Assembly: GCA_029560465.1 (NCBI GenBank)
Contig: JAKQKX010000063.1
Span: forward strand, 67,796-131,795
Source: Candidatus Omnitrophota bacterium
GTDB lineage: Bacteria > Omnitrophota > Gorgyraeia > Zapsychrales > JANLHA01
Reading direction: 5' to 3'
DNA length: 64,000 nucleotides
The notes below the pieces were generated by a model. It was given only the letters and a program-made list of their open reading frames with translations. It had not been told where the DNA came from and made no database searches. The translations under genes were made by a program, and so were the position numbers. Positions 25,157 to 59,701 of the stretch are shown here, piece after piece; the first letter of the stretch is position 1; each line of letters opens with the position of its first letter.

Positions 25157-26815
25157 ATGCCACATGCGTATTTAGTCTTTGAGAAAGATCTCAGGCAATT
25201 TCGTTTGATCCTGTTGTCGTGGTTGGGCGCTGTCGGTGTAACCCACGGGGTCGCCTTGCTCGGAGGGATGTTGCTAAATACCCATTTTATGTTCAGGATC
25301 ACGCAACCCCTGGTTTTACAATGGCTGTCGGCCTTGCAGGCAGTCTTGATTCTTATCTTTGTGCCGTTGATTGTCCAGTCCGATCCGATGGTTGGGACAA
25401 CAGCGTTTTGGTTAACCCGTCCGATTTCCCGCCTTTCTCTCCTCCGGGCGAAGGCCGTGCTTGTGGGAAGCGTCTTTGTCGGGATCCCGTTGTTGCTGGA
25501 GATCGCGGTCCTGGCGCTCAACGGGCTTGCCTGGAAAGATGTTTTACCGGCGGCCTTGCTGATCGCGCTGGAAAAAAGCGCTTTTATCGTTCCGGTTTTC
25601 TTGGTGGCCAGCCTCACGGGAAAATTTCATGAATTTTTTATAGCGGGGATAGCCGCGGTTTTAGGGTGTGTTGCCGCATGGACTCTTCTTCCTGCCTTGG
25701 TCCCGGGGTTGTGCTTCAGCGGGGCCCCGGGGACGGCGTTGGGATCACTTCAACAGCAAATGTTAATTGTTTTTGTGAGCGTGCTTTTGATAGGCCATCA
25801 GTATAAAACCCGTCGGACACAAAGGACGATTGTGGGTGTCTTGGCCGGGGCGCTGTTCATCCCTTGGGCCCTGTGTGTCCTGCCGCAGGGCGTGTTGCAA
25901 CAGGAGGTCTGCCGGATTAACCCGCCGCAGGTGGTCATTCAGACAGGCCAGGCCGTGGTTGCCGAGGATATGGTTTCCGGGAACCGCCTGGCACGGGACC
26001 GCATCGTGTCGATTCCAATCCACGTGCGTGGGCTTCGCTCCGGCCAATTCGCCGTGCTCCTCCGGGTATCCGGCCCATTGATCGCTTATGGCCCGGATGT
26101 TCAACTCCGTTCTTCCGGGCCTTTAAGGTCTCCTGCCGTATTGCTCTCGAGTCGCGAGTTACAGGATCCGATCCAGCATGCCCTTAAAGATTTTATCGTG
26201 ATGAATCCTTATCAGGGGGCCGACAACAGGTATCCTGTTTTTCGGCTGCCGGAAACAGTGTACGATCAATATCAGAAACAGAGCGGGGTATACGAGGGCT
26301 TGGGGGCGTTTGATATTTATGAGTACCGGATTGGGGCGAGGATGCCTTTGGTCCGCGGGGCTAAACGTTTTTCGGGGAGGACGGAAAGCGTTGTTCTTGA
26401 TGTCATTGAAAAGCCTTCCGGGGTCGCAGTGATTGTTGGAGAAAAGACCCTGAATGTGTCCTCGGCCTTCTCGAAGGGGGGGGCTCCTGCCGGAGGCGAT
26501 ACGTCCTTAGATTTTTCCGGGACGTATGTGTTGGTCCATCCTGGGCGCAAGGAAGCGTTTTTGGTTGATATCCTTGATCAGCCGGGGATAAGAATAGACC
26601 TGGCTTGGCCGGTAAGGGCGGACCGGCTGGGTTTTAAGGTTAAGCGGTATGATTTTCCCGGGCTTAACGTCGGTGGGTCTGTTACCGGTGTTCAGAAGTC
26701 ATGGCTGAAGGAGGCGGAACTGATCCGTTTGGAGGCACGGGAACTCGGTGTTTTTGAGAGAAACTTGCGTTTTTCCGATTTTGTCCTTCCTGAAGTCGGG
26801 GAGTTAAGAAAGTGA
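25157..26815 (+). CDS. ABC-2-like membrane permease fused to a large (~330 aa) extracytoplasmic domain of unknown function
   Basis: Six N-terminal TM helices are followed by a soluble domain with no motif I recognise. The arrangement is GntR-ATPase-permease. Confidence 0.5.
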   Translation: MPHAYLVFEKDLRQFRLILLSWLGAVGVTHGVALLGGMLLNTHFMFRITQPLVLQWLSALQAVLILIFVPLIVQSDPMVGTTAFWLTRPISRLSLLRAKAVLVGSVFVGIPLLLEIAVLALNGLAWKDVLPAALLIALEKSAFIVPVFLVASLTGKFHEFFIAGIAAVLGCVAAWTLLPALVPGLCFSGAPGTALGSLQQQMLIVFVSVLLIGHQYKTRRTQRTIVGVLAGALFIPWALCVLPQGVLQQEVCRINPPQVVIQTGQAVVAEDMVSGNRLARDRIVSIPIHVRGLRSGQFAVLLRVSGPLIAYGPDVQLRSSGPLRSPAVLLSSRELQDPIQHALKDFIVMNPYQGADNRYPVFRLPETVYDQYQKQSGVYEGLGAFDIYEYRIGARMPLVRGAKRFSGRTESVVLDVIEKPSGVAVIVGEKTLNVSSAFSKGGAPAGGDTSLDFSGTYVLVHPGRKEAFLVDILDQPGIRIDLAWPVRADRLGFKVKRYDFPGLNVGGSVTGVQKSWLKEAELIRLEARELGVFERNLRFSDFVLPEVGELRK

Positions 26816-26883
26816 TCGTCGCCACGCTTTCCCGGACAACCGGGGAACGCGAGGGTTCTTTTCTTAAAAGATAGATAGAGGAG

Positions 26884-28890
26884 ATGATTATGAATAACGG
26901 AGTCAAACGGGTTTCTGCGGTGGTTATATTAGGGAGTGTCCTGCTCTGGACGGCCTGGGCGTACGCATACCAGCATGTCAGGATGGAAGGATATCAGCTG
27001 GTCACTGATTACGATCAGGACGGGACATACACGCCTTTTTTTGTCAAGGGGGTCGGGTACAACGCTATCCCCACCGGGGCTTTCCCGAGTGAATACGGAA
27101 TATGTTGGTATAAAGGCATTATTAACGGAAAACCCCAATTCGACTGCCCGGGGGTTCAAGAATATGAAGACCCGGTGATGATGGAAAGGGACCTGGCTAT
27201 TATCAAATCCATGAACGCCAACACAATCCGGACCTGGGGCAAGGTGACGCCGCAGTTGATGGATCAGGCCCAGGCTATGGGATTGAAGGTTATCGCCGGC
27301 TATTGGCTGGATCATAATCTGGATTTTATGAAGAGGGACCTCTCCGGCGTGGAGAAGGATTTTCTGCAGTATGTCCGGGCTTTTAAGGATCATCCGGCGC
27401 TCTTGATGTGGGTCGTGGGGTATCAGAATGAAACAGACCTTTGTAATTTCCAGGGAGCTCAAAGCGATTGCAGCCGGGCGGAGCAGGCCAAGGCCTATTA
27501 TGATTTTGTGAATGCTTTGGCCCGCCAGATCAAGACGCTGGAGGGGGATTCTTTTCATCCCGTGATGATGATCTCCGCGGACCTGGGGGATATCGGCCAG
27601 ATTGCGACCGATGAAAGGCTGAAGGACGTTGATATTCACGGATGCAATGTTTACCGGGGGCCGGACTTCAGTAATTTCTTTGAGTTGTACGCCAACCGTT
27701 CGGCCAAGCCGCTTTTGATTTCGGAATTCGGTTCAGACGCGTGGTTTGTTTTGGACGGTAAACGGCCGGAGAAAGGGGTTGAGAGGCAGGATCTCCAGGC
27801 TTCTTTCCTGGCTGAAGAGTGGGATACTTTGCTGAAATATTCGGGTGGGCGCGGCGGGTTTGTTCTGGGCGGGGTTGTCTCCCCTTTTGCCGACAGCTGG
27901 TGGCAGTATAAAGGCGAGTGGTCGCCCACATGCGCGACGCATGACCGTAATTATATCGTCGGTTTTTATTCCGGACCGGACGGGTTTACTAACCCGGAGT
28001 GGTTCGGCCTCGTGGCCTTGAAACGCCCGGAGGAAGGCCAAAAGTACGACTGGGTTAAGCCCAGGCTCGCCTATACCGTCATGCAGCAGAAATTTACGGA
28101 CCGGCCTCCGGAGCGGCCTTGGCAGGGTTTTGGCAAAGGGACGCTGAGGACGGACGTGTCCTGGAATTACACCGCCGGGTATCATTTTACGCCCCTTCAA
28201 CCGGGGCAGGTTACTCAACTGGGCGGCTTGTTTAACGGGACCAAAATGGTGTCCCTGTGGAACAAGACGACGGGGGTGCTGCTGGCGAAGGCGAAGGTGG
28301 CGTCGGCCAACACGTGGTCTTACAGTGATATCTCTCCGGTAGAGGTTATTCCGAGTTACACGTATACCGTCGCGGTGACATTGGACGGGAGCGGGGGCAG
28401 CCACACCTATGATATCCCCGCCCTGCCGCTGACATGCGGGGATATTCGGATCGAAGGTTCGACATTCGCTTACGGAAGTGCCCGGCCGGTTTCGACAGTG
28501 TTGCCGCAGATGTACGGGCAGGCTGATATTAATTTTGTCCCTCAACGGAAAGGGAACAACCGCGCGCCGATTCTCCTTTCTTCACCGGTGATTTCTCCGC
28601 GCTCCATCTCGGAGAATAAGAAGGGGACGCTGACGGTGCAAGCCAAAGATGAAGACGGGGACACTTTGGTTTACCGGTGGCTCCCCAGTGTCGGGAGCAT
28701 TGAGGGCGACGGGCCCCAGGTGACGTATATCCCGCCGGATGTCTCAGAAAAGACGTTGGAAAACGTCGTCAGCCTTATCAGCGACGGCCGGGGGGGGATT
28801 GTATACGGGAATGTCCTTTTTGAAGTTTTTCCGGTATTTGATCAAACGGCCCCGGAGGAGACAACGAGCCATGAAACGACAGGTCTTTAA
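26884..28890 (+). CDS. secreted GH72-like clan GH-A enzyme (paralog 2) with a DUF4082-like and Ig/PKD-like C-terminal extension
   Basis: A signal peptide is followed by FFVKGVGYNAIP, DLAIIKSMNANTIRTWGKV, LMWVVGYQNETD, VDIHGCNVYRGPDF and LISEFGSDAWF. These are collinear with the 30144..31382 and 6894..9506 proteins. Confidence 0.7.
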   Translation: MIMNNGVKRVSAVVILGSVLLWTAWAYAYQHVRMEGYQLVTDYDQDGTYTPFFVKGVGYNAIPTGAFPSEYGICWYKGIINGKPQFDCPGVQEYEDPVMMERDLAIIKSMNANTIRTWGKVTPQLMDQAQAMGLKVIAGYWLDHNLDFMKRDLSGVEKDFLQYVRAFKDHPALLMWVVGYQNETDLCNFQGAQSDCSRAEQAKAYYDFVNALARQIKTLEGDSFHPVMMISADLGDIGQIATDERLKDVDIHGCNVYRGPDFSNFFELYANRSAKPLLISEFGSDAWFVLDGKRPEKGVERQDLQASFLAEEWDTLLKYSGGRGGFVLGGVVSPFADSWWQYKGEWSPTCATHDRNYIVGFYSGPDGFTNPEWFGLVALKRPEEGQKYDWVKPRLAYTVMQQKFTDRPPERPWQGFGKGTLRTDVSWNYTAGYHFTPLQPGQVTQLGGLFNGTKMVSLWNKTTGVLLAKAKVASANTWSYSDISPVEVIPSYTYTVAVTLDGSGGSHTYDIPALPLTCGDIRIEGSTFAYGSARPVSTVLPQMYGQADINFVPQRKGNNRAPILLSSPVISPRSISENKKGTLTVQAKDEDGDTLVYRWLPSVGSIEGDGPQVTYIPPDVSEKTLENVVSLISDGRGGIVYGNVLFEVFPVFDQTAPEETTSHETTGL

Positions 28891-30143: not shown

Positions 30144-31382
30144 ATGAACAGGACAGGGATCAAATACGGGCTGGCGACGGGGGTCATCATGGCGGTTATC
30201 CTGTTAGGGATTTCACCTTGTTGGGCGTATCCTTATGTCAGGGTGGACGGGCGGCGATTATTGACGGATTTTGACCGGGACGGGCGGTATGAGCCGTTTC
30301 TTGTGAAAGGGATGGGGTATTCCAACACCCCGATCGGGTCGTTCCCGTCCCAGTACGGGTTATGCTGGTACCGCGGCACGTCCGACGGGCAGCCGCAGTT
30401 TGAATGCCCAGGGGATCAGGAGTATGACAATCCGCTTCTTCTGGACCAGGACCTTCCGTTGATTAAAGACATGAATGCCAACACGATTCGGACTTGGGGG
30501 AAGGTCACGCCGGAACTTCTTAAGAAAGCTAATGAGCTGGGGCTGAAGGTCATTGCCGGTTACTGGATTCCTCATCAGCTGGATTATGTGAACGGGGACC
30601 TGGCCGCGTTGGAGAAGGACATCCTTGACTATGTCGCGGAATTCAAGGATGACCCGGCGATTTTAATGTGGGGAATTTCCAACGAGAATGAAGTGGCCTT
30701 TTGCACCTTCAAAGATGCGGGCCCCTCTTGCCGGCGGGAGGATCAGGCGGCCGCTTTTTACAAGCTTATGAATACGATTGCCCGTAAAATCAAGGAGCTG
30801 GAAGGGGAGTCGTTTCATCCGGTGATGATGGTTTCCGCTGACCTCGGGGACATCGGGGTCCATGCGGGGGATGAGGCGCTGCCTGACGTGGATGTCCACG
30901 GATGCAATGTTTATCGCGGCGGGGACTTCGGCCCCAAAGCGAACAATTTCTTCCAGCAGTATGAAAAGCGCTCCCGAAAACCGGTTTTAATCACCGAATT
31001 CGGAACGGACGCCTGGTTTGTCCTGGGAGCGGATCACCCGGAGAGAGGGAAAGAACGGCCGGACATGCAGGCTAAGTATATCGCGGAGTCTTGGGACACG
31101 ATTATGGCGTATCACGTGACCCGTGGCGGGCCGAACATCGGCGGCGTGGTGTTTCAGTATGCCGATGGATGGTGGAAATATAAAGGGGATTGGGATCCTT
31201 CTGCGGCCACGCATGATTGCGGATATACGCCGGATGTTCACGCGGGGCCGGACGGGTACATGAATGAAGAATGGTTTGGGGTGATGGCTTTGGAGCCGAA
31301 TCCTGTTCCTGGGCAACTGGACATCCTGCACCCTCGGCCGGCGTATGACGTGATCAAGGAAAAGTTTGCCGGCGAGCTTTAA
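30144..31382 (+). CDS. secreted GH72-like clan GH-A enzyme (paralog 3, catalytic domain only)
   Basis: A 412-aa product with a signal peptide. The motif series is FLVKGMGYSN, CPGDQEYDNPLLLDQDLPLIKDMNANTIRTWGKV, LMWGISNENEV, VDVHGCNVYRGGDF and LITEFGTDAW. It parallels yeast Gas1: [44 protein letters not shown] and FFSEYGCN. Confidence 0.7.
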   Translation: MNRTGIKYGLATGVIMAVILLGISPCWAYPYVRVDGRRLLTDFDRDGRYEPFLVKGMGYSNTPIGSFPSQYGLCWYRGTSDGQPQFECPGDQEYDNPLLLDQDLPLIKDMNANTIRTWGKVTPELLKKANELGLKVIAGYWIPHQLDYVNGDLAALEKDILDYVAEFKDDPAILMWGISNENEVAFCTFKDAGPSCRREDQAAAFYKLMNTIARKIKELEGESFHPVMMVSADLGDIGVHAGDEALPDVDVHGCNVYRGGDFGPKANNFFQQYEKRSRKPVLITEFGTDAWFVLGADHPERGKERPDMQAKYIAESWDTIMAYHVTRGGPNIGGVVFQYADGWWKYKGDWDPSAATHDCGYTPDVHAGPDGYMNEEWFGVMALEPNPVPGQLDILHPRPAYDVIKEKFAGEL

Positions 31383-31446
31383 ATCCGGGGCCGGTCTGTT
31401 TAAAACAAGAAGGGTTCTGGTCAGAAACATTAAACGAGAGGAGATC

Positions 31447-31911
31447 ATGATGAAACGGTATTTAATTCTTTTAACGGCCGTGTTGGGTTTGTTTGCCGTA
31501 TCGACGGCCGCGCTGGCGCTGGATTTCGGTGATTATAAATCATCCACGCTCACGGCCAAAGCCTGGGGCGCGCTGAACAGCAAAGATTACAAGGAAGCGA
31601 TTATTTACACGGACAAATGCATTGAACTGTATTCGGATAAAGCTCGGGAGATGCAGGCTAAGATGAACGAATACCCGTCCGGGGCGACGGAGGAGATTCA
31701 CACGAATTACTGGGCGCTGAACGACGTGGCGACAAGTTTGTTCATAAAAGGGAAAGCTTTGCTTGAGCTGGGCCAGGAAGACCAAGCGAAGGATGTTTTT
31801 AAAACATTGATCGGGGAATTTACATACGGTCAATGCTGGGACCCGAATGGGCCGTGGTTCTGGGCTCCGGCCAGGGCGGCGAAAGATCAGTTGCTGGTCT
31901 TGGAAGGGTAG
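31447..31911 (+). CDS. secreted single-copy Trp-rich helical module protein
   Basis: The ATG at 31447 has a GAGAGGAG RBS. After a signal peptide the protein reads LDFGDYKSSTLTAKAW...TYGQCWDPNGPWFWAPARAAKDQL, which is the same module as in 9741..10601. Confidence 0.7.
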   Translation: MMKRYLILLTAVLGLFAVSTAALALDFGDYKSSTLTAKAWGALNSKDYKEAIIYTDKCIELYSDKAREMQAKMNEYPSGATEEIHTNYWALNDVATSLFIKGKALLELGQEDQAKDVFKTLIGEFTYGQCWDPNGPWFWAPARAAKDQLLVLEG

Positions 31912-47354: not shown

Positions 47355-47726
47355 TTGGGACGGGATGATTTTGGGTTTCCGGGACGCGGGGGCATAAGGG
47401 TGAGTGGGAAATTTTCAAAAGGCCTCACGGATTTTGAGTGGGCGGTTTTAAAAGCGACACTGGAAATCCCATTGGGGGAGACCCGGTCGTACAAATGGGT
47501 CGCGGAGAGAATCGGCCGGCCGCAGGCGGCGCGGGCGGTGGGGCAGGCTTTACGAAAGAATCCGTACCCGATTATTATTCCCTGCCACCGGGTTATCAAG
47601 GCCAACGGGGATCCGGGCGGTTACGGCGGCAAACAAGACCCGCGGAAAGCGCGTCTGCTAGCGCAAGAAAGGGATATCGCCGCGAGGATACGGCTCCTCG
47701 GGGCAAGGGGAGGGGGTGGCGCCTGA
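47355..47726 (+). CDS. ogt: methylated-DNA--protein-cysteine methyltransferase (Ogt/MGMT) DNA-binding/active-site domain
   Basis: The PCHRV active-site motif and the upstream RSYKWVAERIGRPQAARAVGQALRKNP helix are present. Confidence 0.8.
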   Translation: MGRDDFGFPGRGGIRVSGKFSKGLTDFEWAVLKATLEIPLGETRSYKWVAERIGRPQAARAVGQALRKNPYPIIIPCHRVIKANGDPGGYGGKQDPRKARLLAQERDIAARIRLLGARGGGGA

Positions 47727-47853
47727 AGGGCGGGATGAAAGAACGTTTAATTGTTCCCAGGGCGCTTGTCCGGATGTACAATAGGAACATATAATATTTT
47801 TTGGGATGGAAAGAATCCGTTTGGGGGATCATTAAAAAGAAAGAGGTTAGCTC

Positions 47854-48933
47854 ATGGATATTAAACAACTGTTCAGGATCATGATTGACAAAAAGGCATC
47901 GGATTTATTCGTGAGCGCGAAATCCCTGCCGCGGGCCAGAATCAACGGGGTCGTTAAGATTATTTCTGAAGAGATGATCAGCGAGGAGCAAATGGACCAG
48001 ATCGCCGCGACGGTGTTGAATAATGAAGAGCGGAAAAAGTTGTTCCATTTTAACAAAGATATTGATTTTATCTATAACGAACCGGAGGTGGGGCGGTTCC
48101 GCATTAACCTTTCCATCGAGCGGGGGCACCCGGCGGTGGTGGCCCGCCATATTAAGACGAGCGTGGAGTCTTTTGAATACCTCAAACTGCCGGTTGACCT
48201 GCTGAAGACGTTTTGCGAGGAATCTTCTGGGCTGGTGATCCTTTCGGGCCCGGCGGGCAGCGGAAAGTCCACGACCATCGCCAGCATGATCGATTATATC
48301 AACAATAACAGCGAGAAGCATATCGTAACGATCGAGGACCCCATCGAGTTTATTTTCGCGGATAAAAAGAGCATGATTAACCAGCGTGAACTCGGAACGG
48401 ACGTCCATTCCTACCCGGCGGCCCTGAAACACGTCACGCAGCAGAGCGCGGATATTATTTATATCGGCACGATACGCGACGTCGACACCATGCGCGCGGC
48501 CATCACCGCAACCGAGCTGGGGAGTTTTGTCCTGACCACCTTTCACACGGTCAACGCGGTCCAGGCCATCACCCGCATCGTCAATTTTTTCCCCCCGTAC
48601 CTGCACGAAGAATTGCGCATGCAGTTGGCCATTATTTTAAAAGGCGTGATCTCCCTGCGGCTGATCCCCTTAAAAGACGGGTCGGGCCGGGTGCCGGCGT
48701 ACGAAACCATGGTCGTCACCCCGACCATCTCCCGCCTGATCCGGGAAGGGAAGATTAATGAAATTCAGAAATTTATCGATGAAGGCGAATTATACGGGAT
48801 GCAGTCGTTTAAGAAATCCCTCGTGCACCTGGTTAAAGAGGAATATGTTGACGAAGAGGACGCCCGCCGTTTCGCCGACAGCAAAGACGAATTTAACCTG
48901 GAGCTGAAGGGGTTGAAACGGTACCATAAATAA
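47854..48933 (+). CDS. pilT: type IV pilus retraction ATPase PilT/PilU family
   Basis: Walker A (GPAGSGKSTT), the IVTIEDPIEF Asp box and the His box (FHTVNAVQA) are present; the product is 359 aa. Confidence 0.85.
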   Translation: MDIKQLFRIMIDKKASDLFVSAKSLPRARINGVVKIISEEMISEEQMDQIAATVLNNEERKKLFHFNKDIDFIYNEPEVGRFRINLSIERGHPAVVARHIKTSVESFEYLKLPVDLLKTFCEESSGLVILSGPAGSGKSTTIASMIDYINNNSEKHIVTIEDPIEFIFADKKSMINQRELGTDVHSYPAALKHVTQQSADIIYIGTIRDVDTMRAAITATELGSFVLTTFHTVNAVQAITRIVNFFPPYLHEELRMQLAIILKGVISLRLIPLKDGSGRVPAYETMVVTPTISRLIREGKINEIQKFIDEGELYGMQSFKKSLVHLVKEEYVDEEDARRFADSKDEFNLELKGLKRYHK

Positions 48934-49384
48934 AACGGCAGGCCATGATTATCAGGCATCTGGCAACCCATCCGGGGCTTTGATGTTGCGCGTTTGCCAG
49001 TAAGCGACACGTTGAATTTTAAAACTTTTCTTCCCACAGGCAGGGACTCCTCCCAGGCCTTCTTGAAATCTTTTGCTATACGCGACAGCCGCATTGTCCA
49101 CAAGAGAAATCCGCTATCAGAGCACATCCAACATCTTTGAACGCAAGCAGGATTGGTTCGCCTGGCCAGGAAATTTTTCAATTATACATTTATTGAGAAT
49201 TTTAATCGTGTTATAGTACGCAGAGTATTTGCTTGTTATTATTGAACTTACCTAAAGGGGCCCTTTTCCGTTTGGGTCATGGCTTGGGTGGCTACCCCAT
49301 GAAGTTTTGCATGAGAAAGGATTCAAGAGAAATGGAACGATGGTCGCGCCCTGGCGGGATACGGCAAAGGGTGCAGGAGGTGTT

Positions 49385-49894
49385 ATGATTCGAAGAAGTT
49401 GTGGTGTCGTGTTCGTTTTGTTTTTCTTGACCGCTATAATAATGACACGCGCATACGCCATCCAAGCTGATGATTTGAAGGTGGCGTTTTTATACAATTT
49501 TGCTAAATATGTTGAATGGCCTGTCAATACCCCCGAGGGGACGATAAGTATATGCACGTATGGTTCGCCTCCCGGCGCTTTGAAAACCATTGAGCAAAAG
49601 AATGTTAAAGGCAAAACGGTCCAAACAAAATATTTAAGCGATGCCGGGGCGGCGACGAGTTGTCAGATCGTGTTTGTCAGATCAGGCCCCCAAGCCGCCA
49701 GGATTCTTGCTGCGGTGAAGGGGGCGAGTGTTTTAACCGTTGGGGAAGAGGAAGGGTTCCTTGATAACGGAGGAATTATTAATTTTAAGCTAACGGGGGA
49801 AAAAATCGGGTTTGATATTAACGCGACTTTGGCGCGTGCTAACGGATTAACGATCAGTTCGCAACTTCTTAAATTGGCGGATGAGGTCAGATAA
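49385..49894 (+). CDS. DUF4154/YfiR-like periplasmic protein
   Basis: The internal ATG at 49385 has an AGGAGG RBS. A signal peptide is followed by DLKVAFLYNFAKYVEWP and a C-terminal GFDINATLARANGLTISSQLLKLA, as in YfiR-family repressors. Confidence 0.6.
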   Translation: MIRRSCGVVFVLFFLTAIIMTRAYAIQADDLKVAFLYNFAKYVEWPVNTPEGTISICTYGSPPGALKTIEQKNVKGKTVQTKYLSDAGAATSCQIVFVRSGPQAARILAAVKGASVLTVGEEEGFLDNGGIINFKLTGEKIGFDINATLARANGLTISSQLLKLADEVR

Positions 49895-51311
49895 AATGAA
49901 ATTTTTCCGGGATATTTCAATCAAATACATGATCGCCATCATTATTACGCTCACGTGTGAATCCGTGTTATTTATCGCCTGTTTGGCATATGTTATAAAT
50001 GATGTTAAAAGTTTCCGTCAGGAAATACCCAAAAATATCGGGACATTGGCGCAAGTGTTGGGCCAAAACAGTGTTTCAGCCATCATGTTTAAAGACGCGG
50101 ATAGCGCTAAAGATGTTCTGAACGCCCTGAGCACCAATTCCCACATAATTTCGGCAGCCATATATGTTGGGGATGGAAATCTCTTCGCGACCTACGTTAG
50201 AGATAATGCCCGTGTTGTTTTTCCAGAAAACATTTTAGAGAATGATTATGTTTTTGCCGAAAACACCTTGAATTTTTTCCAGGAAATTGTTTCCGATGAT
50301 GAAAAGGTGGGCACAATTTTTATCCAAACCGACCTTTTGGAAATGAGCACGCGCCTAAAAAAATTTATTGTTATTTCATTGTTAATTATGTTTTTGTTAT
50401 TACTGTTGTCTTTGGCCATGGGAATTTATATGGGGGGGAAGATTTTATATGTCATTGAGCACCTCATTCAGCTGTTTACAAGAATCGGTGAAGGCAATTT
50501 AACGCAACGCGTATCTTTTGAGTCGCGCAACGAAATCGGTAAATTAGCCCAATTTTTTAATACTTTTATCGGTAATATTGAAACAATGGTGAGTCAGGTC
50601 AAACAATGCGCGGAGAAGGTATCAACGGCGGCAAAGGCTTTTAAAGGAAACTCCAAAGGCATTTTAGAGGGTACCGAACAGCAATCCGCGGGGTTTGAAG
50701 AATTGTCGGCTTCCGTGCAGGATACGGCGGCAGATGCTAACAGGGTTAATGAAATTACGCAAGAAACGGCAAGGAGTGCTGAAGTCATGAAGGGAAGCAT
50801 GTCCGTTACCATTGAAGCCATGGATAGTATCGAGAAAAGTTCAACCCAGATTAAAGAGGCGGTTTTTATCATAACCAATATAGCGGATCAGATAAACCTG
50901 TTGGCTCTTAATGCGGCTATTGAAGCGGCACGAGCCGGTGAGCATGGCAGAGGCTTTGCCGTTGTCGCTGACGAAGTTCGGAAACTTGCCGAGCAAAGCT
51001 CATCTTCCGCCAATGATATTGATAAGATGGTGAATGGCAGCTCGCAACAAGTAGCCCATGGTGTTCAATTGGCCCAGAAATTGGGAGAAGAGCTTAATAA
51101 AATAGTAGCCAATATGAATCAAGTTGCCAATCATGTCGCCGGCATTTCTACAAAAGTTCAATCCCAGGCAGCGACGATGGAACAAAACACTTCTATAACG
51201 GACGCTAACGCTACCAACGCGAAAGAATTGCAAGAAGTTGCTGTGAAAGTGTTTGAATATGCCGATACTTTGCATACCTTAATTGCAAAATTTATCGTTG
51301 GGAATCATTAA
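49881..51311 (+). CDS. methyl-accepting chemotaxis protein (TM plus ~170-aa periplasmic sensor plus TM plus HAMP plus MCP signalling domain)
   Basis: The start overlaps the upstream stop by 14 nt. The signalling-domain core reads [34 protein letters not shown]. Confidence 0.85.
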
Positions 51312-51368
51312 TGTCCCCGGTTATTGAACTTGGGGTGTCATGCCTAAATTTTAAAATAGGGCGGACCG

Positions 51369-52199
51369 GTGGATAAGAAAAAAATCCTTATTATTGATGA
51401 TGAACAAACCCAGAGGGTCCTGTTATCCAGGATATTTGAAGGGGCCGGCCATGCCGTGATGCAGGCGGAAGACGGGCAAAAAGGTCTTCAGATGACCCGG
51501 GATATTAAGCCTGATCTTATTGTCACCGATGTCCTTATGCCCAAGATGGACGGCTTTACCTTTTTCAAGGAGCTCAAAACCAGCGACCTCACAGCCCATA
51601 TTCCTGTCCTGATTATAACGGGAAGGGCGAAAATGGAGGAGACGTTTAAAGTCATGGGGGCCGATGACTTTATCCTTAAACCCGTCCAGGCCGAAGACTT
51701 GGTGGCAAAGGTGGATCGGTTGCTGGGCTGCTCCAAGACGGCAGATGCGCCCCCGCGGGGCCGCAAAAGAGTCTTGGTTGCGGGAGAGGACGGTGAAACG
51801 GCCCGGAACATCGCGTTGCTTTTGGATCGGGAAGGTTGTCACACGGATATGGTCACCTTGGACGCCCAGGTTATCTCACGGGCGCTTATGTTCCTTCCGG
51901 ATATCATTGTGATTGATATTTTGATGGAAGGGTTGCCGTCTTACACCATTATTAAGGTTTTGCGCCAGATGTCCGAATTTGAAAATATCCCCATGATCGG
52001 GTACTGTTTTTACAGATTACCCGGCCTTCAAAGCGAAGGGGGGCAACAAAAGGCCCTGAATGAGGATGCCGCGGCAGAGGCGTGCCGGAAAGCGGGGCTC
52101 ACTGACTATTTGGGGCGGTGGCATGAAAGCACTTTTATCAAGAGTATCGTTCAATATTTAGAAGGGCCTCCTGGTGACGAAACTGACGTTGATTTTTAA
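51369..52199 (+). CDS. response regulator with one canonical and one degenerate receiver domain (CheY-like)
   Basis: REC1 has KILIIDDE...DLIVTDVLMPKMDG...K. The second REC-like domain (KRVLVAGED...DIIVIDILMEG) lacks some acidic-pocket residues. Confidence 0.7.
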   Translation: MDKKKILIIDDEQTQRVLLSRIFEGAGHAVMQAEDGQKGLQMTRDIKPDLIVTDVLMPKMDGFTFFKELKTSDLTAHIPVLIITGRAKMEETFKVMGADDFILKPVQAEDLVAKVDRLLGCSKTADAPPRGRKRVLVAGEDGETARNIALLLDREGCHTDMVTLDAQVISRALMFLPDIIVIDILMEGLPSYTIIKVLRQMSEFENIPMIGYCFYRLPGLQSEGGQQKALNEDAAAEACRKAGLTDYLGRWHESTFIKSIVQYLEGPPGDETDVDF

Positions 52200-52458
52200 A
52201 ATAGAAGACGAGCAGGAGCGCAGAAAAGCCTTGCTGGAATACGCCAAGACGTTAAAAGTTAATTTTCTTCACGCGCAAAGAACAGGGGGCGAATACAGCG
52301 AGAATGAACTGGCTGTCTTTATATACAATGCTGAACGGGCTTTGAAAAAATTTTCGGCTTTTGAGGTCAATTTTTTTGTGGCCGCCTTTGCTGTGTTGGT
52401 GTCCCTGGTGGCAATGATATTTTTTCTTGTTGGCCTTTTCATGCCTAAGGTGCCGTAA
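52174..52458 (+). CDS. hypothetical 94-aa protein with a C-terminal TM helix
   Basis: The ORF overlaps the upstream stop. I see no recognisable motif, so this is only weakly supported. Confidence 0.25.
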   Translation: MTKLTLIFKIEDEQERRKALLEYAKTLKVNFLHAQRTGGEYSENELAVFIYNAERALKKFSAFEVNFFVAAFAVLVSLVAMIFFLVGLFMPKVP

Positions 52459-52524
52459 AAAATGATCTGTTTCCTCTCGCCTGCCCTTGGGTCGGAGGGT
52501 GCGTTTCTTTCCGTATTTCTTTCG

Positions 52525-52552
52525 TTGTTTTTCGGACGTGTTATGTTATAAT
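52525..52552 (+). promoter_or_regulatory. sigma70-like promoter (TTGTTT-16-TATAAT) upstream of prfB
   Basis: -35 is at 52525..52530 and -10 at 52547..52552, which is 40 nt before the ATG at 52592. Confidence 0.4.
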
Positions 52553-52591
52553 ATCCTCCAATCCTTAACTCTAAATATTATAAATATTTAT

Positions 52592-53692
52592 ATGTCTAAT
52601 AATACTATCATACAGCTTAAAATGCTCAGGGAAAAAGTCTGCCAGCTGACAGGTTTTCTGGACCTTTCCAAAAAACAGGAAGAAATAGTGGCGATTCAAC
52701 AAAAAATGTCTCAGCCGAATTTTTGGGATGATAATGAGGCCGCTAATAAAATTATGCAGAATCTGAAATTCCTGAAATCCTGCGTTGAACCTTTTGAGGA
52801 GATTACCGGTAAGTTGAATGATTTAGGAGAGTTGGCCGAGTTGTCGGAAGGGGAAGAGTCATCCCTACAGGAAATCGAACAAGACCTGGCGGGACTGCAG
52901 AAGGATATTGCGGATTTAGAAACCAAGTCCCTTCTGTCCGGTCCGTTCGACCGCAATAACGCGATCCTCAGTATTAACGCCGGGGCCGGCGGGACTGAGT
53001 CGTGTGACTGGTCCAATATGCTTTTGAGGATGTATATGCGCTGGGTTGAAAATATGAGGTACAAATTGTCCACCACGGACATCCTTCCGGGGGAAGAAGC
53101 CGGCATCAAGAATGTGACCCTGCGCATTGAGGGCCCGATGGCGTACGGGTACCTTAAAGGGGAAAAAGGGGTTCACCGGCTGGTCCGGATATCGCCGTTT
53201 GACGCCAATAAACGGCGGCACACGTCTTTTGCGTCTGTTGACGTGATCCCTGAAATCGAGGATGATATTGAGGTGGAGATCAACCTCGATGACCTGAGGA
53301 TTGATATTTTCCGTTCATCCGGGCCGGGCGGGCAGAGCGTTAACACGACCGACTCGGCGGTGCGGATCACCCATGCTCCTTCCGGAATCGTCGTCCAGTG
53401 CCAGAACGAGCGTTCTCAGTTGCAGAATAAGCAGATGGCGATGCGTATCCTCAAGGCCAGGCTGTATGAAAAAAAACAGAAAGAACAGGAAGATCGGATG
53501 GCCAAGGAATACGGCCAGAAACAAAAAATCGAATGGGGCAGCCAGATCCGTTCTTATGTCATGCATCCGTATAATATGGTGAAAGACCACCGGACCGACG
53601 CGGAAACCGGGAACGTGTCCCGGGTTATGGACGGCGACTTGAGTTTGTTTATTGACGCGTTCTTGCGCTGGAAGCCGGAAAGCGCGGTCTGA
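52592..53692 (+). CDS. prfB: peptide chain release factor 2, encoded in a single frame (no programmed +1 frameshift site)
   Basis: The SPF tripeptide (RISPFDANKRRHTSF) and the GGQ motif are present. The N-terminal region GFLDLSKKQEE is continuous where frameshifting genes carry CTT TGA C. Confidence 0.9.
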   Translation: MSNNTIIQLKMLREKVCQLTGFLDLSKKQEEIVAIQQKMSQPNFWDDNEAANKIMQNLKFLKSCVEPFEEITGKLNDLGELAELSEGEESSLQEIEQDLAGLQKDIADLETKSLLSGPFDRNNAILSINAGAGGTESCDWSNMLLRMYMRWVENMRYKLSTTDILPGEEAGIKNVTLRIEGPMAYGYLKGEKGVHRLVRISPFDANKRRHTSFASVDVIPEIEDDIEVEINLDDLRIDIFRSSGPGGQSVNTTDSAVRITHAPSGIVVQCQNERSQLQNKQMAMRILKARLYEKKQKEQEDRMAKEYGQKQKIEWGSQIRSYVMHPYNMVKDHRTDAETGNVSRVMDGDLSLFIDAFLRWKPESAV

Positions 53693-58963: not shown

Positions 58964-59701
58964 ATGACGAGGGATAAAAAATCCGTTGCTGTCATTATTT
59001 GTTTGTGTGTTGTCGTGTATGGGACGGGCCTGTTATCTTTACGGGCCAATCCGGATGTGTTCGGGAACGTCCCATTATCCCTGCACCGCCAGGTGTTGGT
59101 TTTATTGTTTCTCACGCTGTCGCTGTCTTCGCTGGTGATGCTGCTGTTTAAAGAATGGGGGAGGAAAATATTCCTGGGGGCTAACGCGCTTCTGTGCCTT
59201 TATCTGTCCTGGATCGGGATGAGGTTTGCTGCGCAGGATGTTTTGCCGTTTATTTTGCTTAATATCGTTGTGCTTTTGTTTTTCAGCCAGGGGAAGATTA
59301 AGCTGGCGTTCGCGCGGAAATGGGAATACGCCCGCAAGAGCGTTTTAATCGTCGATGACGATGAGGGTATCATTAAAACGGTTAAGGGGATCCTTCTTCC
59401 CAACGGATTCAGCGTCCTGACGGCGGTGTCCGGAGAGAAAGGGATACAGGTCGCTAAAAGGCAGAAACCGGATTTAATTATCCTGGATGTTATTCTGCCT
59501 GGCATTAAGGGCCGGGAGGTCTGCGCCACACTGAAACAGGCCGAAGAAACCAAGAACATCCCGGTGCTTTTTTTAACGGCCAAAGATTCTATGGATGATA
59601 TTCACGCGGAATTGGCTGCCGGAGCGACCTCTCATTTGACAAAACCTGTCCACGCCAAGACCCTTCTGGCGGAAGTGCGGCGTATTTTTGAACAGCATTA
59701 A
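58964..59701 (+). CDS. membrane-anchored stand-alone receiver (3-4 TM helices plus a C-terminal REC domain)
   Basis: The N-terminus is hydrophobic. The REC domain reads VLIVDDDEGIIKTVKGIL...DLIILDVILPGIKG...LFLTAK and has no output domain. Confidence 0.65.
   Translation: MTRDKKSVAVIICLCVVVYGTGLLSLRANPDVFGNVPLSLHRQVLVLLFLTLSLSSLVMLLFKEWGRKIFLGANALLCLYLSWIGMRFAAQDVLPFILLNIVVLLFFSQGKIKLAFARKWEYARKSVLIVDDDEGIIKTVKGILLPNGFSVLTAVSGEKGIQVAKRQKPDLIILDVILPGIKGREVCATLKQAEETKNIPVLFLTAKDSMDDIHAELAAGATSHLTKPVHAKTLLAEVRRIFEQH

Follow-up and report, generated by a model that had tools for sequence, protein, structure and literature searches.

A YfiR-like gene paired with a CHASE8 chemoreceptor gene in an uncultured Omnitrophota bacterium: a candidate chemotaxis-output variant of the YfiR/CHASE8 input module

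In Pseudomonas aeruginosa, the periplasmic protein YfiR is a repressor of YfiN that YfiB or reducing conditions can release, and in Yersinia pestis the HmsC protein binds the periplasmic domain of HmsD (PMC4887326, PMC5550408). The C71–C110 bond of YfiR forms and breaks with redox state, HmsC cannot function without C87 and C126, and an HmsC variant devoid of all four cysteines fails to co-purify with HmsD (PMC5550408). Signalling of the YfiR/YfiN type has so far been studied only as a cyclic di-GMP (c-di-GMP)/biofilm switch in a few proteobacterial pathogens. Here we analyse a 64 kb stretch (hereafter the window, with all coordinates counted from its start) of contig JAKQKX010000063.1 from a Candidatus Omnitrophota bacterium (GCA_029560465.1), in which a gene for a YfiR-like protein (DUF4154 family) directly precedes a gene for a methyl-accepting chemotaxis protein (MCP) with a CHASE8 sensor domain.

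Our results suggest that this pair is a two-protein input unit, in which the secreted YfiR-like protein would bind the CHASE8 domain and gate the chemoreceptor by analogy with the systems described above; we give this reading a probability of about 0.6. It rests on homology to YfiR and HmsC and on a conserved pairing of the two genes that is independent of the output domain. The pair belongs to a gene block (49385–52199) with all genes on the + strand, and its parts are as follows:

49375–49380, + strand: Shine–Dalgarno sequence AGGAGG of the YfiR-like gene, read from the sequence, 4 nt 5′ of the ATG at 49385
49385–49894, + strand: YfiR-like (DUF4154) gene for a predicted secreted protein of 169 amino acids (aa), Pfam DUF4154 E = 3.5e-39, signal peptide at about residues 1–25 (49385–49459)
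49892–49898, + strand: gene junction TAA-A-ATG (YfiR-like stop, one base, MCP start), conserved in relatives L172, L002 and L092
49896–51311, + strand: CHASE8–HAMP–MCP chemoreceptor gene, 471 aa, with Pfam matches to CHASE8, HAMP and MCPsignal
49998–50360, + strand: periplasmic CHASE8 sensor domain, about residues 35–155, from hydropathy, Pfam, NCBIfam and an AlphaFold2 (AF2) model
50454–50582, + strand: HAMP domain, residues 187–229, Pfam 31.9 bits (cut-off 25)
50598–51308, + strand: cytoplasmic signalling hairpin of the MCP, Pfam MCPsignal 142.3 bits

The YfiR-like gene lies in an open reading frame (ORF) at 49307–49894. The ATG at 49385 is the right start because it follows the Shine–Dalgarno sequence and because a public homologue (P0122, named 'YfiR family protein') also has 169 aa. 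The protein scores 134.6 bits against Pfam DUF4154 (PF13689; cut-off 24.9), and its hydrophobic N-terminus (residues 1–28, ending in AYA followed by IQ) predicts export to the periplasm. The profile of the YfiR-like family matches the P. aeruginosa YfiR structures in the PDB (E = 6e-13). For the AF2 model (predicted local distance difference test score, pLDDT, 87.4), the top 15 fold matches in the PDB are all YfiR, with target-normalised TM-scores of 0.73–0.77 and a root-mean-square deviation of ∼3 Å. Among specific models, the best for this protein is NCBIfam YfiR_like_TOL0243 (NF053591; 109.3 bits, cut-off 125), while sequest_YfiR (NF053586) gives 31.3 bits and its cut-off of 85 is not reached. 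On these profile scores, the window protein is not an orthologue of YfiR.

The chemoreceptor is 100% identical to a public 'methyl-accepting chemotaxis protein' (P0001) of Candidatus Omnitrophota metagenome-assembled genomes (MAGs; HOY08934.1 and HPN55502.1). According to Pfam and hydropathy, it consists of a first transmembrane helix (TM1), a CHASE8 domain, a second transmembrane helix (TM2), a HAMP domain and an MCP signalling domain, with no GGDEF domain. CHASE8 (PF17152) scores 60.3 bits (cut-off 27) and MCPsignal (PF00015) is far above its cut-off of 34.6. The NCBIfam DgcN/YfiN model also matches residues 26–251 with 58.7 bits, which bears out the suggestion in a preliminary description of this DNA that the sensor is of the CHASE8/YfiN type. 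Hydrophobic stretches at residues 7–37 and 150–187 place TM1 at about 10–34 and TM2 at about 157–182, so that the periplasmic domain has ∼120 aa rather than the ∼170 aa given earlier. The NCBIfam model HK_near_YfiR_like (NF053592, 'sensor histidine kinase, YfiR-like protein-associated') matches residues 13–234 with 152 bits (cut-off 194).

In the AF2 model of the periplasmic domain (pLDDT 85.5), a long helix leads into a PAS/Cache-like fold with five strands. Within the PDB, this model is matched best by the periplasmic domain of a LapD orthologue (CdgS9; 4u64) and by the extracellular domain of WalK. No CHASE8 structure was found in the PDB by sequence search. Both the LapD orthologue and WalK are sensors that act via partners located outside the cytoplasm.

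The signalling domain looks functional, as judged from its canonical hairpin tip (GEHGRGF, starting at residue 348) and Glx-pair motifs. The tip region (29 residues) aligns with Tsr without gaps, and the signalling region as a whole is gap-free over 178 residues against the Escherichia coli Tsr core, needs only compensating 1-residue gaps against an aerotaxis-receptor chain, and needs 7- and 14-aa indels against a Thermotoga receptor. By our count, there are ∼17 heptads per arm. The Glx-pair motifs EQQ (261–263) and EE (269–270) fall, in the alignment register, at what we take to be the methylation positions of Tsr.

The two genes are tightly coupled but probably do not overlap, as judged from their junction. 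The MCP ORF extends over 49881–51311, and an overlap of 14 nt, as reported in the preliminary description, depends on an ATG at 49881 that has no Shine–Dalgarno sequence and reads ACG in L002. By contrast, a start at 49896 is common to all four Omnitrophota-clade loci, where TAA and one base are followed by ATG or TTG; in the window, GAGG at 49883–49886 lies nine bases upstream of this start, and the 471 aa of P0001 fit it. The overlap is thus replaced by a spacer of 1 nt.

We then surveyed how widely the pairing is conserved. Starting from the YfiR-like protein, 80 genome loci (mostly Acidobacteriota, Verrucomicrobiota, Nitrospirota, Desulfobacterota and Gammaproteobacteria) and 80 metagenome loci were fetched, and the gene directly downstream was compared with a local profile of the MCP sensor module (residues 1–235). 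A homologous sensor module is directly downstream in 73 of the 80 genome loci and in 56 of the 69 assessable metagenome loci. About 80–90% of the surveyed YfiR-like genes thus directly precede such a module, far beyond chance. The outputs attached to it vary: among 64 partner proteins, HisKA was found in 56, REC in 37, Hpt in 18, GGDEF + EAL in five and MCPsignal in none, and the only MCP partner among the metagenome loci (L092) belongs to the window's own clade.

An exhaustive search with the sensor module over 1.84 billion representatives yielded 5147 representative clusters at E ≤ 1e-10, and ∼10 of the best 150 representatives carry an MCP signalling domain. The closest relatives of the MCP-type sensor modules are mostly non-MCP proteins, which indicates repeated swaps of the output. 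Other searches added little: a word-indexed search of a 5.8-billion-protein index with the sensor module returned nothing although the identical P0001 is in that index, which marks a sensitivity gap; a metagenome scan with the single MCP gave no confirmed relative; and a metagenome scan with a three-sequence YfiR-like alignment gave only one extra window-clade locus (L092).

Seen from the receptor side, a YfiR-like gene is adjacent in seven of the nine CHASE8-MCP lineages that were examined for gene context (i.e. the window with L172; L001, L002 and L092; L086; L090; L087; L091; and L088 with L089, where the YfiR-like gene is divergently oriented to the MCP gene). The preliminary description had made its proposal depend on similarity of the sensor to YfiN and on recurrence of DUF4154–MCP adjacency elsewhere; the similarity was found, and the adjacency recurs in independent lineages. 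In L090, two tandem DUF4154 genes (3–476, cut by the contig end, and 502–1050) precede the CHASE8-MCP gene.

The adjacency could nevertheless be without function here, with the MCP sensing alone through its CHASE8 domain and the YfiR-like protein acting on another target. Cellvibrio- and Oceanicoccus-type CHASE8-MCPs that have no neighbouring DUF4154 gene fit this explanation. However, the 1-nt junction between stop and start is kept down to 56% MCP identity, the surveyed YfiR-like genes mostly sit directly before a sensor module, and the window contains no second CHASE8 protein, so we regard this explanation as highly improbable.

In most relatives the pair is part of a larger cassette. A gene for a TonB-dependent receptor lies directly upstream of the YfiR-like gene in 48 of the 66 genome loci that could be assessed, with frequent overlaps of 4 or 13 nt between the two genes. 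NCBIfam models the cassette as three consecutive families, i.e. NF053590 (TOL_0244 receptor), NF053591 (TOL_0243 YfiR-like protein) and NF053592 (kinase). Cassettes of TonB-dependent receptor, YfiR-like protein and CHASE8 (hybrid) histidine kinase are widespread across phyla (L006–L085, e.g. L009:1670–7239). The partner proteins of L009, L086, L087 and L091 pass the NF053591 cut-off with 136–172 bits. By profile comparison, the closest family of the window pair is this NCBIfam triad rather than YfiBNR. The earlier proposal of a YfiR-style switch rewired to chemotaxis therefore stands in its YfiR, CHASE8 and MCP identities, while YfiBNR as the nearest relative does not (31 bits for sequest_YfiR). 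The literature yielded no paper that deals with the triad, with 'YfiR-like' proteins or with DUF4154 and chemotaxis together; the individual genes are already annotated publicly, and the pairing and the wider pattern appear to be undescribed.

No such receptor was found in the window with a local profile made from 46 receptors of the triad. In the related locus L001, a TonB-dependent receptor was considered as a triad partner and rejected, because it is of the heme/B12 type, reaches 94 bits with TOL_0244 and has CbiMQO as its neighbour. With no receptor in the window and an unrelated one in L001, the Omnitrophota version appears to be a reduced two-gene form. The loci of the P0003 clade (L001:1668–7597; L002:499–936; L092:2430–2867) have a divergent gene for a FUR-family regulator upstream of the pair, and in L001, which also has the heme/B12-type receptor, genes for cobalt transport (CbiM/CbiQ/ABC) lie downstream. 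These neighbours may point to a metal-related setting of the pair in that clade.

Alternatively, another part of the genome could encode an outer-membrane partner, either a TOL_0244-type receptor or a YfiB-like lipoprotein, which provides the true input by sequestering the YfiR-like protein; the window would then hold only two-thirds of a tripartite, envelope-spanning relay. The frequency and tight spacing of the upstream receptor gene, its place in the three consecutive NCBIfam families and its presence in two MCP-type loci (L091 at 668 bits and L086 at 428 bits, against a TOL_0244 cut-off of 645) all favour such a partner. Against it, neither a receptor nor an OmpA-type gene is present in the window, no such partner is adjacent in the Omnitrophota-clade relatives, and the MCP-type locus L087 is also without one; we consider this explanation rather unlikely. 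An envelope-stress relay through an outer-membrane partner, as had been envisaged from the YfiBNR system, finds no counterpart in the window, where neither a YfiB/OmpA-type gene nor a TonB-dependent receptor gene was detected.

Signals from the two-protein unit would have to reach a chemotaxis pathway. Among ∼50 ORFs taken from the whole 64 kb, Pfam detected no CheA, CheW, CheR or CheB domains, which agrees with the preliminary description, nor any flagellar, OmpA or TonB-receptor domains; the genes predicted in another 9 kb, upstream on a public contig, have no che domains either. The che genes presumably lie elsewhere in the genome of this organism. Beside che genes, the CHASE8-MCP/YfiR-like pair was found at two loci. 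L086 (1–8287) has the order cheA, cheW, TonB-dependent receptor, YfiR-like gene, CHASE8-MCP, cheY, cheB and cheR/cheX (a cheR–cheX fusion), and L090 has the downstream half of this arrangement; cheA and cheW are thus present at one of the two.

Two further genes follow the MCP gene in the window:

51369–52199, + strand: REC-REC response-regulator gene, 276 aa, Pfam Response_reg, with the first receiver domain (REC1) at 51384–51713 and the second (REC2) at about 51771–51998
52174–52458, + strand: small conserved ORF of 94 aa with a hydrophobic C-terminus, a counterpart of 72% identity in the same place in L172, no Pfam family

The earlier view of this regulator as a dual receiver with a degenerate second domain agrees with our analysis. 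REC1 (residues 6–115) scores 105 bits against Response_reg and has a complete phospho-acceptor pocket (D10, D11, D54, T84 and K104), while the second half of the protein can be called degenerate since its 20.3 bits fall short of the cut-off of 30.2 and the match covers only model positions 1–74 of 111. The REC-REC gene lies 57 nt downstream of the MCP gene, and the 94-aa ORF, which overlaps its 3′ end by 26 nt, may be in the same operon. Upstream, a pilT gene (PilT/PilU ATPase, 375.8 bits) lies 451 nt from the YfiR-like gene, and pilT and prfB flank the block of YfiR-like, MCP, regulator and small-ORF genes. In L172 (89% MCP identity), the REC-REC protein is 78% identical and the synteny covers the REC-REC gene, the 94-aa ORF, pilT, prfB and secA.

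These neighbours raise the alternative that the receptor feeds a type IV pilus pathway or another function via the REC-REC protein and PilT, and not flagellar chemotaxis. Their closeness to the pair and their synteny in L172 are consistent with it. However, no REC-REC gene lies beside the MCP gene in L001, L002 and L092 (56% MCP identity), nor is pilT kept there; REC1, at 30% identity, resembles the CheY of L086 no more closely than receiver domains resemble each other in general; and an MCP cannot phosphorylate a receiver without CheA. We therefore consider it improbable. The REC-REC protein was likewise rejected as a conserved member of the module, its linkage to the MCP being kept only in L172, and the earlier inclusion of its gene in the unit is not supported; any role in the YfiR-like/MCP module would be a putative one. 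A link of PilT to the pair was rejected too, as PilT is syntenic only in L172 and its place upstream is taken by the divergent FUR gene in the P0003-clade loci.

The 451 nt that separate pilT from the YfiR-like gene (48934–49384) form an unusually long spacer. An Rfam scan of 47500–53000, which includes this spacer, gave no match, and consensus scans for promoters and terminators over 48800–52700 did not exceed the shuffled expectation, so that no operon boundaries can be given. Elsewhere in the window, a second response-regulator-like protein of 245 aa (58964–59701) has its receiver domain at the C-terminus (residues 127–238) and no Pfam family in its N-terminal 126 aa, and four ORFs of 552, 668, 412 and 181 aa at 25157–28890 and 30144–31911 have no Pfam family at E ≤ 1e-6. 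The + strand carries nearly all long ORFs of the window, and every 2-kb bin has a positive GC skew, which fits a single replichore arm.

The cysteines of the YfiR-like protein bear on what might trigger the unit. C57 and C93 of the window protein align with C71 and C110 of YfiR (C87 and C126 of HmsC), and both are present in 97 of 121 homologues. Since the pair is kept and aligns with the redox bond of YfiR and the essential pair of HmsC, a redox trigger of the window protein is plausible from the alignment. The redox switch suggested in the preliminary description is therefore backed only in part, by this pair; the second pair of YfiR (C145 and C152) has no equivalent.

Several observations weigh against the two-protein reading: (i) the Cys145–Cys152 disulfide, which is important for YfiR folding, is absent from the window protein, where these positions are L126 and N133 (cysteine in 0 of 121 homologues); (ii) by our own mapping, the proposed YfiN-contact residues are loosely conserved (F151 to I, E163 to D and I169 to A); (iii) the outer-membrane partner typical of the relatives is missing from the window; (iv) both window proteins score below the cut-offs of the triad models (109 vs 125 and 152 vs 194 bits); (v) cheA, cheW, cheR and cheB are absent from the window and from the 9 kb further upstream; and (vi) the Cellvibrio- and Oceanicoccus-type CHASE8-MCPs (P0060 and P0052) have no DUF4154 gene beside them, which indicates that a CHASE8 receptor need not have a partner gene next to its own.

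The nature of the partner could also differ from what YfiR suggests. Instead of a repressor, the YfiR-like protein could be a ligand-presenting co-receptor that docks on the CHASE8 domain only when loaded with a small molecule in its hydrophobic pocket (cf. maltose-binding protein and Tar, or LuxP and LuxQ), making the unit a conventional attractant/repellent sensor. After YfiR itself, the next fold matches of the model are substrate-binding proteins (8wgl, 6k1x, 3lkv and 3lft), YfiR crystals bind vitamin B6 and L-Trp in a pocket formed by L166, I169, V176, P178 and L181 (PMC4887326), and the conserved adjacency fits a co-receptor as well as it fits repression. However, all characterised members (YfiR and HmsC) are repressors that get released, the pocket residues are poorly conserved in the window protein by our mapping, and no ligand is known for TOL_0243-type proteins. 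Such a co-receptor role seems unlikely to us.

Under the two-protein reading, the YfiR-like protein would be exported to the periplasm and bind the PAS/Cache-like CHASE8 domain of the MCP. The bound protein would set the receptor state, probably holding it in one state until released, as YfiR does with YfiN and HmsC with HmsD. When it is released or binds again, the change would travel via TM2 and HAMP to the Tsr-like signalling hairpin, which would in turn control a CheA/CheW pathway with its genes in another part of the genome. The best candidate for a trigger in this receptor-less version would be the redox state of the C57–C93 pair, while in most relatives the TonB-dependent receptor encoded upstream would be the likely input. 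For the window pair, we infer the physical binding, the sign of regulation and the trigger.

A broader proposal, which we advance tentatively and rate at somewhat less than even odds, is that what gates the chemoreceptor would be a dedicated YfiR-type protein of the periplasm, captured and released in turn, and not a ligand on the receptor's own sensor, and that the pair would represent the chemotaxis-output, receptor-less branch of a widespread envelope-spanning cassette whose output (kinase, c-di-GMP enzyme or MCP) has been swapped repeatedly. The YfiR-like/CHASE8 input pair behaves as a portable module: most copies are wired to histidine kinases with a dedicated TonB-dependent receptor in front, and the pair has become linked to chemoreceptors on several occasions. 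If the pair works as inferred here, a receptor class gated by a partner protein would be added to chemotaxis, and a compact two-gene system would be available for asking what YfiR-type proteins sense, in which the Tsr-like domain might be assayed in E. coli. As regards the window, the gain is annotation-level insight into an uncultured Omnitrophota bacterium, with no demonstrated new mechanism.

Finally, we compared the window pair with known systems. Like YfiBNR (P. aeruginosa TpbB/YfiN and E. coli DgcN) and HmsCDE of Y. pestis, the window has a DUF4154 gene beside a TM–CHASE8–TM–HAMP sensor and keeps the cysteine pair of YfiR C71/C110 and HmsC C87/C126. Unlike them, its output is an MCP hairpin instead of GGDEF, it has no gene for an OmpA-type lipoprotein of the YfiB/HmsE kind, and its host is a member of the Omnitrophota and not a gammaproteobacterium. 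With the NCBIfam triad it shares the best specific models for both proteins as well as the gene order and tight spacing, but it has no receptor gene, an MCP replaces the (hybrid) histidine kinase and the scores stay below the curated cut-offs.

The pairs in L086, L090, L087 and L091 are likewise two-gene units of a YfiR-like protein and a CHASE8-MCP, yet their sensor modules are only ∼30–40% identical to that of the window and closer to non-MCP modules, and the receptors of L087 and L091 have ∼680 aa compared with 471 aa in the window. L087 and a related protein come from Deltaproteobacteria MAGs. The Cellvibrio- and Oceanicoccus-type MCPs (P0060 and P0052) have the same CHASE8–HAMP–MCPsignal architecture and are 28–33% identical to the window MCP.

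Sensors controlled by an extracytoplasmic partner protein are also known in LapD–LapG, WalK–YycH/YycI, Tar–maltose-binding protein and LuxQ–LuxP. The likeness of the window CHASE8 domain to LapD, WalK, Tar and LuxQ is one of fold or concept only, with no sequence-family relation and with partners unrelated to DUF4154. By analogy with these sensors, a PAS/Cache-like extracytoplasmic domain may serve as a docking site for a partner protein. Taken together, the window system is best described as a chemoreceptor-output variant of the YfiR/CHASE8 input module without the outer-membrane partner.

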